Shown here in pieces: positions 3,238-25,779 of a stretch of DNA of 25,832 nucleotides. Location: positions 1-25,832 of the forward strand of contig JBNMKP010000001.1 in the NCBI GenBank assembly GCA_050874405.1. Direction: 5' to 3'. A program made the position numbers and the translations under genes. Below the pieces are notes generated by a model. It searched no databases. It saw nothing but the letters and a program-made list of their open reading frames with translations, and was not told the origin of the DNA. This stretch comes from a bacterium. GTDB lineage: Bacteria; Cyanobacteriota; Vampirovibrionia; Gastranaerophilales; Gastranaerophilaceae. Positions within the stretch are counted from its first letter, which is position 1. Every line of letters begins with the position of its first letter.

Positions 3238-3554
3238 ATATTAAATCCGTCAAAATATTTATAAATATAAGGAATTTGACTATCTTTGATGTTGTCTATA
3301 TTTTTAATTATAACTTTTTTCATGTCATTTATTGTCAGAGAGTTGTCAAAATCAAAAAATGCTTTTAATTCGACATTTAAAATTTTGGAAATTTTTTCTA
3401 GGGTAACAAGTGATGGAAAACTTCTCCCACTTTCAATTCCACTTAAAGAGCCGGTTTCGATACCAATGAGTTCGGATAGTTTTTCTTGTGTTAAACCTGC
3501 ATTTTTTCTTATTTGCTTAATTCTTTTTCCTAATAATTTTTTATTTTCAGTCAA
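3219..3554 (-). CDS. XRE/Cro-C1 family HTH transcriptional regulator
   Basis: LGKRIKQIRKNAGLTQEKLSELIGIETGSLSGIESGRSFPSLVTLEKISKIL is a typical XRE HTH; TTG start preceded by AGGAG. Confidence 0.9.
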   Translation of the reverse strand: MTENKKLLGKRIKQIRKNAGLTQEKLSELIGIETGSLSGIESGRSFPSLVTLEKISKILNVELKAFFDFDNSLTINDMKKVIIKNIDNIKDSQIPYIYKYFDGFNIKETDK

Positions 3555-3623
3555 AATATTTCTCCTATATCTAAAAATATAATTGACTTTTGAATTATAA
3601 ATAAGTGAAATAAATTCGTTCTA

Positions 3624-3652
3624 TTGACAAAAGTACATAATTAATCAATACT
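3624..3652 (+). promoter_or_regulatory. Candidate sigma70 promoter for pilin 3708
   Basis: TTGACA (3624-3629), 17 nt, AATACT (3647-3652). Perfect -35, weaker -10. Confidence 0.45.
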
Positions 3653-3707
3653 TAAATGTAAAAACTCTGCATATATTTTGTAGTTTTTGGAATAATAAGA
3701 GGTATTT

Positions 3708-4691
3708 ATGAATAAGATTTTGAAATGTATAAATGAATGGAAAAGTGAAGATTATAACTTGTCTTCGTGTTTTGGATTGTTACGTCACTTCGTGAAAAAA
3801 AATTCCCACTTGAGAATAAATGTTCCTCACAATGACGGTGAAGTTTGTTCCCTCGCCCATTTATGGGAGAGGGTTAGGGTGAGGGCTGCATTTACTTTTT
3901 CAGATGCTACGCACATAGACGTGCCACCAACAAAGCAGAAACTTGCATTCACATTGGCAGAAGTTTTAATCACTCTCGGTATCATTGGAGTTGTTGCAGC
4001 GATGACTATTCCGACATTGATTACGGCATATCAAAAAGAAGTAACTGTTCAACGATTAAAACAAATGTATAGCATAATTAATCAAGCAGCAAAAATGTAC
4101 ACAAATGATACAGAAACAGAGTTTGGGTCATTTGATACTCAATTAACACCAAAAGAATTTTTTGAAAAATATTTCTCTTCTTATTTAAAGGTTGTTCAAA
4201 CTTGTGAACCTGCGAATGAGTGTTATAAAAATGAAACCCCCATTGCTATTGATAGAAAAACACCAATTAGTTTACCTCCATATATGGTTGGTTTGATAAA
4301 TGGAACTTTTGTTGGGTATATCACTACTGTAGGTGGAGCATTATTTTATGTTGATATAAATGGTGCTTCAAAACCTAATAAATCCGGTCGTGATATTTTT
4401 TATTTTTATCTTTTCAACCCTGATACTCTTGGTGAAAATTTTGGGGGGTGTGCAGAAATTTTAAATAATCTGAAAAATAATCTTAAAGCTGGATTATACC
4501 CTGGAGGGTTTGCAACTTGTTATATACCATTTACATCATATAAAAGAAATGAGTTAGTTGATAATAATTCAGAAATCCATAGAAATTGTTCTCGTAATCC
4601 AAAAAGAATTGATGGTGCAGGAGCTGGAGATGCTTGCGCAGCCGTAATTATGTTAGACGGTTGGAAGATTAATAAAGATTATCCTTGGTAA
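3708..4691 (+). CDS. Type IV pilin-like protein with an 80-aa leader
   Basis: A|FTLAEVLITLGIIGVVAAMTIP methylation motif at residue 81 (nt 3948), DINGASKPNKSGRDIF motif, C-terminal Cys pair and DGWKINKDYPW; AAGAGGT SD before ATG 3708. Confidence 0.9.
   Translation: MNKILKCINEWKSEDYNLSSCFGLLRHFVKKNSHLRINVPHNDGEVCSLAHLWERVRVRAAFTFSDATHIDVPPTKQKLAFTLAEVLITLGIIGVVAAMTIPTLITAYQKEVTVQRLKQMYSIINQAAKMYTNDTETEFGSFDTQLTPKEFFEKYFSSYLKVVQTCEPANECYKNETPIAIDRKTPISLPPYMVGLINGTFVGYITTVGGALFYVDINGASKPNKSGRDIFYFYLFNPDTLGENFGGCAEILNNLKNNLKAGLYPGGFATCYIPFTSYKRNELVDNNSEIHRNCSRNPKRIDGAGAGDACAAVIMLDGWKINKDYPW
3774..3836 (-). repeat. Palindromic element copy A (GTCATT..GAG...GTGACGTA..AATCC family), in frame inside pilin leader
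   Basis: Reverse complement reads GTCATTGTGAGGAAC...GAAGTGACGTAACAATCC. The ends match copies at 23778-23841 and 23874-23938. Confidence 0.7.
3850..3885 (+). repeat. GC-rich hairpin / G-quadruplex element inside pilin leader
   Basis: CCCTC-G-CCCAT-TT-ATGGG-A-GAGGG hairpin followed by TTAGGGTGAGGG. Four GGG runs at 3865-3885 in an otherwise AT-rich gene. Confidence 0.75.
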
Positions 4692-4735
4692 ATGTTTTTG
4701 TTCTATAATTTATGTAGTGTAACAACCAAAATAAT

Positions 4736-4759
4736 GTAGGTCGGCATTGCTATGCCGAC
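4736..4759 (+). repeat. GTAG-type REP element (upstream of RAYT)
   Basis: GTAG + GTCGGCAT-TGCT-ATGCCGAC (8-bp stem); identical to 5323-5346. Confidence 0.9.
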
Positions 4760-4779
4760 AATCAAAAAGAAGAATTTTT

Positions 4780-5292
4780 ATGAATTATAGACGAATTTAT
4801 ATTCCGAATTCAAAAGTGTTTATAACTGTAGTTACAAATAATCGAATTCCGATATTGAAAGCTCGTGAAAGCTTACTATTAAGTTCTATTAATGATGCTT
4901 CAAAATATTATGACTTTGAAATTGACTGCTTCTCTATATTGAACGACCATTTTCACTTTCTTTTATCAACGAGAAATATTTTAGATTATCCCAAAATTGT
5001 TCATTCTATAAAATATAATTTTACAAAATGTGTCGGCGTGGCAACGCCGACCTACAATAAGAAATCTTCATTATGGCAGAATAGATATTTTGAACATTCA
5101 ATTATTGATGAGAATGATTTATATAAACATATCGATTATATTCACTACAATCCTGTAAAACATGGTTATGTTTCAAAAGCTATAGATTGGAAATATTCTT
5201 CTTTTGAAGAATTTGTAGAGTGTGGATATTATGAAAAGGATTGGTGTAATTTTGGGGATAAGTATGGTATAAATAATTATAATTGTGAATAA
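4780..5292 (+). mobile_element. REP-associated tyrosine transposase (RAYT, Y1 HUH family), 170 aa
   Basis: N-terminal YRR and FITVVT, HUH motif DHFH, WQNRYFEH, catalytic YIHYNPVKHG, DWKYSS; flanked by REPs. ATG 4780 preferred over TTG 4747, which lies inside the REP. Confidence 0.9.
5032..5055 (-). repeat. GTAG-type REP element inside the RAYT coding sequence
   Basis: Reverse complement is GTAG + GTCGGCGT-TGCC-ACGCCGAC; read in frame as VGVATPTY. Confidence 0.85.
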
Positions 5293-5322
5293 ATAAAATG
5301 AACTTTTTATTATTAATACAAA

Positions 5323-5346
5323 GTAGGTCGGCATTGCTATGCCGAC
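5323..5346 (+). repeat. GTAG-type REP element (downstream of RAYT)
   Basis: GTAGGTCGGCATTGCTATGCCGAC, identical to 4736-4759. Confidence 0.9.
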
Positions 5347-5368
5347 AGATAATTAGAGGGCTACAAAA

Positions 5369-6544
5369 ATGACAAAAACATATAATGATGCGGTAAAATT
5401 GTTAACATCTGTCGGAAAATTTCATATTTCTTTGGGTTTAGATAGAATGTTAAAAATTATGGATTTGCTCGGCAATCCACAGGACAAATTGAACTGTATT
5501 CATGTTGCAGGAACGAATGGTAAAGGCTCTGTTTGTGCCATTTTATCTTCGATTTTAACTTGTGCTGGACAAAAAGTTGGACTTTATACTTCTCCTCATA
5601 TTTTTAAATATACAGAACGAATTCAAATATGTGGAAACCCGATTACAGATGACGATTTTGCAAAATATGTTTTTGAAATCTCTGATTTGGCAGATAAAAA
5701 TAATATTGATTTGACTGAGTTTGAAATTTTAACTGCCGTAATGTTCAAATATTTTTATGATAATGATGTTGATGTTGTTGTACTTGAAACCGGCTTGGGT
5801 GGGAGATTTGATGCTACAAATATTATAAAAAGAAATTTGTGCTCAATTATTACCCATGTTGATTTGGATCATACTGAAAGACTTGGCAATACGATTGATG
5901 AGATAGCATCAGAAAAAGCCGGAATTATTAAGCCAAATTGCCCTTGTATCGTGTTTGAGGGTCGAGAGGTTTATAGAGATGTAACAGATAAATTAGAATC
6001 TTTACTCCTTATGGTCGCACCTTTTGCACCAACAACAGAATTGGCTTTGAAAGGTTCTTACCAACAAGAAAATTTGTCACTTGCTCTTGCTGCTATTGAG
6101 GAGATTTTTCCAGAAATTTCGCAAGAAGTAATTGATGAGGGGTTAAGACGAGTTAAACACCCTTGCAGATTTCAATATATAGAAGATAAAAATTTGATAA
6201 TTGATGGCGCACATAATCCAAATGGAATAAATTCTCTAAGACAAAGTTTAGATATGTATTACCCCAATACTAATCGTAGGTTTATTTTTGGTTGTTTAAA
6301 AAATAAGGATTATGCAAAAATGGTTCAAAACTTGTTTATGCAAGGAGATGAAATCTATTTTTACCATTTTAAACATCAAAATTCATGTTCTGTTCAAGAA
6401 TTGCAAAGAGTTTGTCCATTTGACTCAAAAGAACTGACTCTGGATACTCAAATAGATTTTAATGATGGGCATTTGAATATTATTTGCGGTTCATTTTATA
6501 TGATATCAGAACTTGCGCAAAGATTTGATATTAATATATTTTAA
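5369..6544 (+). CDS. folC: Folylpolyglutamate synthase / dihydrofolate synthase
   Basis: IHVAGTNGKGS, LYTSPH, ETGLGGRFDATN, DGAHNP, CGSFY. Confidence 0.93.
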   Translation: MTKTYNDAVKLLTSVGKFHISLGLDRMLKIMDLLGNPQDKLNCIHVAGTNGKGSVCAILSSILTCAGQKVGLYTSPHIFKYTERIQICGNPITDDDFAKYVFEISDLADKNNIDLTEFEILTAVMFKYFYDNDVDVVVLETGLGGRFDATNIIKRNLCSIITHVDLDHTERLGNTIDEIASEKAGIIKPNCPCIVFEGREVYRDVTDKLESLLLMVAPFAPTTELALKGSYQQENLSLALAAIEEIFPEISQEVIDEGLRRVKHPCRFQYIEDKNLIIDGAHNPNGINSLRQSLDMYYPNTNRRFIFGCLKNKDYAKMVQNLFMQGDEIYFYHFKHQNSCSVQELQRVCPFDSKELTLDTQIDFNDGHLNIICGSFYMISELAQRFDINIF

Positions 6545-7358: not shown

Positions 7359-8063
7359 TTAGTGACCATTATATAACTTTTTAAAGTAGTCTTGGTCAGT
7401 TGAAGCATAGTATGCACAAGTCATACCATTTAAATTACTGTTGCTATTTGCATCACAGTAAGTTGCAGGATTTGAACTCCAAGTTGCAGTTGTTCCAGGA
7501 GCTCCAACAGGGAGAACGTCTCCTTTAACTATTTCAAAAGTGAATAAATCCCAACCCCATTTGTTTGGACGGTTGTTCTTTCCGTTTATGTCAATAGAAA
7601 CAAGTAGTCCGTTTGGATTGTCTGCAGGGTTTTCAATTACAAATAACATTCCATTGTTTATAACAAAAGCTCCATCATCAAGCATGTGTGCATTCATTTT
7701 TGTATTGTTATTTTTTCTAATAGTATAATCAGAGGTATTATCTCTGTTTGTTGTTGAAATACAAACACTATCATTTGTTGCAGCATATACACCACAATCA
7801 ATTGTAACTTTTTGATATTGTTTTATTACAGGGTAGAAAGCACCTGCTGTCATATAGTTTTTAGGATCTGTTGATACTTCATCTGCGTCCATTTCTGCAA
7901 TTGATTTTGCTAGAATTGCGTATGCAGTATTAAGCTGAGCTTTTGCTTTCGCAGCTTTTTGCCCAAGCACTAATTGTGGCATAACCAATATCGCAACAAC
8001 CCCAATTACAGTTAGTGCAATCAAAATTTCTCCAAGAGTGAATGCTAAAAACTTCTTTATCAT
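7359..8063 (-). CDS. Type IV pilin-like protein
   Basis: MIKKFLA|FTLGEILIALTVIGVVAILVMP, DINGKNNRPNKWGWDLF motif, C-terminal Cys pair. Confidence 0.9.
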   Translation of the reverse strand: MIKKFLAFTLGEILIALTVIGVVAILVMPQLVLGQKAAKAKAQLNTAYAILAKSIAEMDADEVSTDPKNYMTAGAFYPVIKQYQKVTIDCGVYAATNDSVCISTTNRDNTSDYTIRKNNNTKMNAHMLDDGAFVINNGMLFVIENPADNPNGLLVSIDINGKNNRPNKWGWDLFTFEIVKGDVLPVGAPGTTATWSSNPATYCDANSNSNLNGMTCAYYASTDQDYFKKLYNGH

Positions 8064-25149: not shown

Positions 25150-25779
25150 ATGATAAAAAAGAGTTTGGCATTTACTTTAGCAGAAGTTTTATTGACAATG
25201 ACTATTATTGGGGTTGTTGCAGCGATGACAATTCCTACATTGCATTACCAAAGAGTCAAGAAAGAATATACGACTAAGTTGAAAAATTTCTATAGTCGTA
25301 TGGATAATGCTGTTTTGGATATGGAAACAGATTATGGTTCTTTTAGAGATTTGAGAAAACCTGCAGATGGTGATATTCCTGATGGCTATAATTGGTATAT
25401 GAAATATATTGACCCTTATGTTGGTCACCAGTATGTAGATGCTGATAATCATCAAGTGTTTTTTAGTGACGGTTCTATGATTTCCAGTTTTTGGCCTGGA
25501 GGTTGTTTAGATGTTGTTTATGATGTGAATGGAAGAAAAGGTCCAAATCAAGAGGGCTATGATAGATTCCGTTTCTTGTTCTGCTTTACCGATGGAAATC
25601 GTGAATCTTGGTTTGGAAATAAGAATATATTTTTCGGAACTTATGGCTCTGATGATGTAGCGGCCGGAGCTTCAAGAGATAGTATGCTTCAATCTTGTAG
25701 AGAGCATGGACCAAGATGTACAAGATTGTTGCAAAATGACCAATGGGAATTTAAAAGCGACTACCCATATAAATTCTAG
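25150..25779 (+). CDS. Type IV pilin-like protein
   Basis: MIKKSLA|FTLAEVLLTMTIIGVVAAMTIP, DVNGRKGPNQEGYDRF motif, C-terminal C..C..WEFKSDYPY. Confidence 0.9.
   Translation: MIKKSLAFTLAEVLLTMTIIGVVAAMTIPTLHYQRVKKEYTTKLKNFYSRMDNAVLDMETDYGSFRDLRKPADGDIPDGYNWYMKYIDPYVGHQYVDADNHQVFFSDGSMISSFWPGGCLDVVYDVNGRKGPNQEGYDRFRFLFCFTDGNRESWFGNKNIFFGTYGSDDVAAGASRDSMLQSCREHGPRCTRLLQNDQWEFKSDYPYKF

Follow-up and report, generated by a model that had tools for sequence, protein, structure and literature searches.

The pilin-like gene at 3708-4691 raises two questions: where does its translation begin, and what becomes of the 80 residues that separate a well-placed ATG from the predicted prepilin peptidase site? 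The window, a stretch of 25,832 nucleotides, belongs to a gut melainabacterium of the order Gastranaerophilales, whose relatives carry names such as Candidatus Stercorousia, 'Clostridium sp. CAG:768' and similar. Its own assembly is a fragmented metagenome bin (301 contigs, 1.73 Mb, 32% GC), and the leader structure of the window gene is reproduced in independent assemblies. The metagenomes in which the locus was found come from animal gut and manure and are DNA runs only; none of the RNA runs was shown to contain the locus. The features of the region are the following.

3624..3652, + strand: promoter-like TTGACA-17-AATACT; the -35 box is kept in the G003, P0002 and P0003 loci
3697..3710, + strand: ancestral start, consisting of the Shine-Dalgarno (SD) sequence AAGAGG (3697-3702), a 5-nt spacer and ATG 3708; matches the syntenic G003 ortholog and is identical in the P0002 and P0003 loci
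3708..4691, + strand: pilin-like ORF of 327 aa; Phe+1 of FTLAE is codon 81, at 3948
3708..3765, + strand: non-repeated first part of the leader, MNKILKCINEWKSEDYNLS; self-BLAST copy number below 3; common to P0001-P0003
3766..3836, + strand: element A (CFGLLRHFVKKNSHLRINVPHND), in frame and belonging to a dispersed repeat family with about 20 other copies genome-wide
3795..3802, + strand: A8 run within element A; orthologs read A6T4
3850..3885, + strand: element B, made up of a GC-rich hairpin and GGGTTAGGGTGAGGG (in-frame peptide CSLAHLWERVRVR); about 15 other copies genome-wide
3879..3881, + strand: in-frame GTG, 6 nt after GGAGAGG; from the sequence, a possible internal start giving a 23-aa leader
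3894..3950, + strand: junction repeat of 57 nt or 19 codons, a duplicate of the AFT..LAE site; its presence is polymorphic, some contigs skipping it
3921..3923, + strand: in-frame GTG without SD, not present in the allele missing the 57 nt; ATG in paralogs (MPPTKAKLA)
3945..3950, + strand: predicted prepilin peptidase site, Ala-1/Phe+1, A/FTLAEVLITLGIIGVVAAMTIPTL (slash, point of cleavage); PF07963, E = 3e-4, residues 79-100
3948..4691, + strand: mature pilin-like protein as predicted, 247 aa, DUF6613-like by profile match; substitutions at codon positions 1:2:3, 4:1:26

The first-pass annotation had noted that ATG 3708 has a good SD and that its frame runs without a stop through elements A and B to FTLAE at residue 81, and both statements hold: AAGAGG lies 5 nt upstream of the ATG, and the 79 leader codons that follow it contain no in-frame stop. 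The same stretch has 7 stops in either of the other forward frames and 3 in each of the three reverse frames. The chance of such openness, estimated by shuffling, is 0.002-0.007. The closest ortholog (67% identity) is found in the sister species G003, within the same order of accC, a divergent XRE regulator, pilin and folC as in the window, and its -35 box TTGACA, SD and ATG-AAT-AA align with window positions 3624-3629, 3697-3702 and 3708. Judged by this conservation, ATG 3708 is the ancestral start of the gene. The promoter-like element at 3624-3652 is the only sigma-70-like site within 3540-3960. A scan of 3300-5500 against Rfam, with E values up to 1, gave no match, and no known riboswitch or leader RNA is therefore present in that interval.

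The leader read from ATG 3708 is 80 aa long and ends in Ala, which places it outside the known short, Gly-ending class III form; the known range of class III leaders, 6-26 aa (PMC4471445), would apply only if translation began internally, at 3879 or 3921. The leader is composed of a non-repeated start followed by element A, element B and the 57-nt junction unit. Of these modules, elements A and B had been named beforehand, and both are real; the third, the junction repeat at 3894-3950, had been missed, as had GTG 3879. Both elements are dispersed and multi-copy, in a genome in which about 50 kb has at least 3 further copies. Repeat arrays also lie at many contig ends of the window's genome (G000), and the fragmentation of the assembly is probably caused in large part by the repeats, so that the copy numbers given here are lower bounds.

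The core of element A spans 3774-3836, with conservation from about 3766; the element is the reverse complement of the HVITRK...SDVVIPN module found in other leaders and is absent from the G003 ortholog. Both elements had been described as palindromic. Folding supports this for element B, whose hairpin beats shuffled sequences (z = -2.4), and does not support it for element A, whose fold as DNA does not differ significantly from shuffles (z = +0.86). The A8 run is present at 3795-3802, yet the suggestion that it could switch the reading frame finds no backing: orthologs read A6T4, and no length variants occur in the contigs of four runs, the latter being weak evidence since contigs hide rare variants. 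The peptide module of element B recurs in the leaders on contigs C5, C242 and C4, and the SD-like run GGAGAGG before GTG 3879 is part of the hairpin stem of the element and is paired there. The unit GATHVDMPPTKAKLA-FTLAE is present in 8 paralogs, and the junction module of the window gene is a degenerate version of it, with AFTFSD instead of AFTLAEG. As a tandem junction duplicate, the 57-60-nt unit (GATHVDMPPTKAKLA plus FTLAE) also occurs on G000 contigs C2, C14, C42, C67, C156, C190 and C242, with two copies on C190.

Downstream of the leader, the window gene shows an N-terminal methylation motif and about 21 hydrophobic residues (A/FTLAEVLITLGIIGVVAAMTIPTLI), which score 20.6 bits against PF07963, just below the cut-off of 21.2. 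Two sister pilins in the window, at 25150 and 8063, have the 7-aa leaders MIKKSLA and MIKKFLA that the first reading of the sequence had ascribed to them. In all copies the last 6-8 leader residues (basic, then Ala or Gly) and the FTLAE after them are kept. Ala, and not Gly, precedes the FTLxE site in most of the approximately 79 pilin-like genes. A direct PF01478 scan of the genome itself yielded no match, and the prepilin peptidase homolog (peptidase A24) was found only via homologs from the genus. It is encoded on the minus strand at L070:28-1122 (G000:C112), has a strong N-terminal A24 domain (PF06750, E = 3e-34) and a weakly matching catalytic PF01478 domain (E = 0.011), and shares 33-36% identity with clear PilD proteins of the same order. 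Across the genus, PF01478 falls below the cut-off in 18 of the 19 genomes searched, only G012 passing it. By these profile matches, the prepilin peptidase of the genus is divergent. We know of no leader of at least 80 aa that has been demonstrated to be processed; the 80-aa leader of the window gene is predicted to be cleaved between Ala and Phe.

Orthologous loci show what has been free to change in this region. The G003 ortholog has a repeat-free leader of 22 aa and a further ortholog, in G007, a leader of 6 aa; orthologs from other metagenomes have leaders of 7 aa (MPKKNAA/) up to 201 aa, made of differing modules. P0002 and P0003 are syntenic with the window gene, are 94-95% identical to it over the upstream 150 nt and share its ATG and element A, after which they continue with other modules. 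P0001 corresponds to the window allele minus 19 residues, and contigs of runs X1, X2 and X7, which are independent metagenomes, omit exactly 3894-3950 (57 nt, 19 codons); the forms with and without these 57 nt co-occur in one run. The only natural indel seen in the window leader thus preserves the frame, as had been anticipated for elements inserted into a pilin leader, and GTG 3921, which had been pointed out as an alternative start and does lie in frame, disappears together with the unit.

Substitutions tell the leader and the mature part apart. Over the first 132 nt of the leader, the window differs from P0002 and P0003 at codon positions 1:2:3 by 5:5:7 and 5:5:8, respectively, and there are no indels or stops; over the first 300 nt of the mature part the corresponding figures are 4:1:26 and 4:1:28. 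The mature part is under strong purifying selection against its orthologs (4:1:26), and the peptide sequence of the leader, in which the frame is kept and substitutions show no position bias, shows no constraint. An unconstrained peptide in a preserved frame is consistent with a leader that is discarded and, taken alone, equally with an untranslated stretch; as proof of a coding leader the codon-position test was rejected, given that it shows no coding-type bias and does not separate neutral translated from untranslated sequence.

The peculiarity of the leader is not limited to this gene. A motif scan retrieved 79 pilin-like sites in the genome, and in many of its pilin genes the region that codes for the leader exceeds the usual length by a factor of 5 to 30 and is built from dispersed in-frame repeats. 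At least 60 codons are open upstream of FTLAE at 21 of 71 measurable sites in the pilin frame; the remaining two frames reach this length at 1 of 77 and 1 of 76. For the census of pilin leaders, which the first-pass annotation had proposed as a check, repeats were defined regardless of reading frame (self-BLAST with three or more additional copies, in arrays no shorter than 150 nt). Arrays abutting a pilin cleavage site (n = 23) are fully open in the pilin frame in 16 cases, in neither of the other forward frames in any case (0/23 each) and on the reverse strand in 1 of 69 frames, whereas 79 arrays of the same mean length elsewhere are open in 22 of 474 frames (Fisher p about 8e-15), counts that are not independent and overstate the number of events, as paralogs share modules through descent and recombination. 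The arrays away from pilins contain many stops in all frames.

The placement of the arrays points in the same direction. They lie between the ATG and the cleavage site and not 5' of the ATG, and of the long leaders 19 of 27, of the short ones 32 of 39, have an SD-like motif before their first ATG; at proximal ATG, GTG or TTG candidates it is found in 2 of 20, the background frequency (0.11). Where leaders have a module in common, its reading frame agrees in 167 distal HSPs and differs in 26. Among module copies outside leaders, 28% contain a stop in the leader frame, which holds 1.25 stops per 100 codons in these copies, compared with 6.7 and 8.7 in the other frames; such copies being stop-poor already, the openness of the leaders is partly intrinsic to the modules. 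Seven pilin-adjacent arrays do contain in-frame stops. In five of them there is a repeated poly-G start module, and in a sixth, on C47, an SD-ATG module stands 35 codons upstream of the site; the array on C29 is explained by neither. Repeat-holding ORFs of at least 150 codons number 82, of which 64 are pilins by motif and the rest mostly pilin fragments. Two ORFs consist almost wholly of repeat modules and lie on contigs without a pilin motif, one of 192 codons (G000:C69, minus strand, reverse-complement coordinates 7393-7968) and one of 158 codons (G000:C137, minus strand, reverse-complement coordinates 3622-4095); one of the two is near a contig end, and its pilin may lie beyond it. The clearest case of a non-pilin repeat in an open frame is an ABC-type ATPase ORF (G000:C3:16050-17666), which is open through a repeat module just 5' of its likely ATG; the repeat there is probably untranslated.

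The pattern is repeated in G015, a second species of the genus, with different modules: leaders of 50-183 codons follow strong SD-ATGs, and at nearly all sites the open stretch in the pilin frame exceeds those in the other two. That a cleaved leader would tolerate small in-frame repeats, the central expectation raised at first reading, is borne out in both species insofar as their pilin-adjacent arrays are open in the pilin frame.

A further line of evidence comes from seven sister pilins that start with a repeated module consisting of an SD, an ATG, ten codons and a tract of G8-G11 (G000 contigs C4, C17, C37, C52, C71, C136 and C156; loci L078-L080, L083, L084, L072 and L071). The ATG of the module is in the pilin frame on C52 (G8) and on C156 (G10, 743 nt or 261 codons upstream) and is off by one base on C4, C17, C37, C71 and C136. 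Between the tract and FTLAE, a distance of 56-743 nt, none of the seven genes has a stop in the pilin frame. A pattern search of 41 genomes of the genus recovered the module in this genome (7 copies) and in G009 (one copy) and in none of the others. Pilins of other species in the order also have SD-ATG-poly-G leaders of this kind, for the most part with the consensus out of frame, and the sequences that surround their tracts are different. Further loci with poly-G leaders are L006, L007, L059, L061-L063 and L065. As a frame switch works only with an upstream start and read-through, the poly-G modules provide independent support for translated long leaders. They probably serve phase variation of a large pilin repertoire, with homopolymer errors in the assemblies as another possible source of tract-length differences.

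Taken together, these observations lead us to favor, with reasonable confidence, translation from ATG 3708 and a repeat-built leader that is discarded. According to this reading, the gene encodes a type IV pilin-like protein in a gut melainabacterium, and its translation would begin at the ancestral SD-ATG; the ribosome would pass through three in-frame repeat modules, namely element A, the hairpin element B and the 57-nt junction repeat, and produce a cytoplasmic leader of 80 aa, which the divergent prepilin peptidase of the genome would cut off at Ala/Phe. The sequence of the leader would be immaterial because the peptide is discarded, and selection would act on its frame and openness only; small dispersed repeats and tandem units could thus accumulate in the leader, while equivalent insertions would not persist in the promoter, the UTR or the mature part. 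From sequence comparisons we infer that translation is initiated at 3708, that the leader is cleaved and that it has no function of its own, and in these terms the interpretation first offered for the locus is partly supported.

The chief competitor of translation from 3708, which we regard as unlikely, is that the pilin starts internally, at GTG 3879 (23-aa leader) or GTG 3921 (9-aa MPPTKQKLA), leaving 3708-3878 as an upstream reading frame or UTR and the repeats outside the functional precursor. An internal start would do away with a leader length that has no known precedent and would fit the lack of amino-acid constraint in the leader; element B supplies GGAGAGG 6 nt before GTG 3879, which in the allele without the 57 nt gives a tidy leader, MRAA/FTLAE, and six paralogs have ATG at the position of GTG 3921. 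Yet GGAGAGG is itself base-paired within the stem of the element B hairpin, and GTG 3921 has no SD, reads as Leu and not Met in the orthologs P0007-P0011 and belongs to a segment that a natural allele lacks altogether; more generally, SD-like motifs at proximal candidates do not exceed background (2/20). Left unaccounted for by an internal start are the openness of 16 of the 23 arrays in the pilin frame only, the same pattern in G015 and the open frames of up to 743 nt that connect poly-G start modules to the pilins.

Two other possibilities concern what becomes of the gene or its leader once the frame is read. It is quite improbable, in our estimation, that the leader is translated from 3708 and is not disposable, being retained as a cytoplasmic N-terminal tail or setting the expression level through RNA or DNA structures. 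The stable hairpin and G-run of element B, Ala instead of Gly before the site, the divergent peptidase domain and the maintenance of element A in frame across alleles 69-79% identical would all suit a leader with such a role, but close orthologs differ freely in the content of the leader, which measures 7 to 201 aa and draws on various modules, leader substitutions show no codon-position bias, and every copy retains the last 6-8 residues and the FTLAE that cleavage requires. The least credible of the readings holds that the gene is an inactive or decaying copy, its open leader a recent accident of paralog duplication and recombination. Single losses are perhaps cheap in a family of about 79 members, and the junction module is degenerate (AFTFSD instead of AFTLAEG); nevertheless, the 4:1:26 pattern of the mature part indicates strong purifying selection, the locus is syntenic and its promoter conserved in several strains, and the openness of the leader would arise by chance with a probability of only 0.002-0.007.

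The repeat-built leader resembles several known systems in part. Rickettsia palindromic elements (RPEs) are in-frame insertions in protein-coding genes and, like the window repeats, form small dispersed families, lie in frame within ORFs and leave empty sites in relatives (PMC10969869). The likeness considered here is one of arrangement. RPEs occupy many unrelated genes and stay in the mature protein, whereas the repeats here are nearly confined to one gene family (64 of the 82 repeat-holding ORFs are pilins) and to a segment predicted to be cleaved; unlike RPEs, they also stack into arrays of up to 261 codons. In Neisseria, repeat tracts lie in the part of the gene that codes for the signal peptide. 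The length of such repeats in the 5' coding part sets the frame of the surface protein, as for the poly-G of pilC and the pentamers of opa (PMC5953494), and the sister pilins whose ATG is followed, after 10 codons, by a G8-G11 tract are comparable, some being in frame and others not. The window gene differs in having no such tract, and the system as a whole differs in its class III leader and in the long arrays of complex repeats between tract and cleavage site. With canonical type IV prepilins the gene shares the FTLxE site preceded by Ala or Gly, Glu+5, a hydrophobic helix of about 21 residues and an A24 peptidase homolog in the genome; canonical leaders measure 6-26 aa (PMC4471445), compared with 80 aa here and up to 261 aa in paralogs, mostly with Ala at -1. 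What appears to be new with respect to these systems is that repeats are placed in the leader of a class III prepilin, within one gene family, in stacks of up to 261 codons. In the literature, we found no account of long or repeat-built prepilin leaders, nor of the pilin leaders of Melainabacteria.

More broadly, and more tentatively, the prepilin leader of the Gastranaerophilales could be an open-ended, evolvable structure, with class III signal peptides of 50-261 aa made from mobile and tandem repeats, many of them starting with poly-G, that would together turn a repertoire of about 80 pilin-like surface proteins per genome on or off depending on frame. Were this so, the prepilin peptidase would handle leaders ten times longer than any known, the limit for class III signal peptides would move from 26 aa to more than 250 aa, and the lineage would offer a natural test of what the peptidase requires upstream of the cleavage site. 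Small mobile DNA would accumulate preferentially in gene families whose cytoplasmic leaders are cleaved, and at loci of this type, where selection sees frame and openness only, the fate of small mobile repeats would be readable from genomes. The poly-G start modules hint that surface proteins of this uncultured gut lineage undergo phase variation on a large scale. For annotation, gene callers can be expected to over-extend or truncate hundreds of pilin-family genes of gut Melainabacteria.

Next to the pilin, at 4747-5292, the window encodes an IS200-like Y1 (RAYT-type) transposase, with GTAG-tagged hairpins at 4732-4760 and 5319-5347. We considered elements A and B as REP elements of this adjacent RAYT and dismissed the idea: both differ in sequence from the RAYT-flanking hairpins and are without the GTAG tag, and no link between the RAYT gene and either element was found. 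In the G003, P0002 and P0003 loci no RAYT-type gene is present between the pilin and folC. The RAYT-type gene of the window carries an inverted copy of the hairpin inside its own ORF, at 5031-5059.
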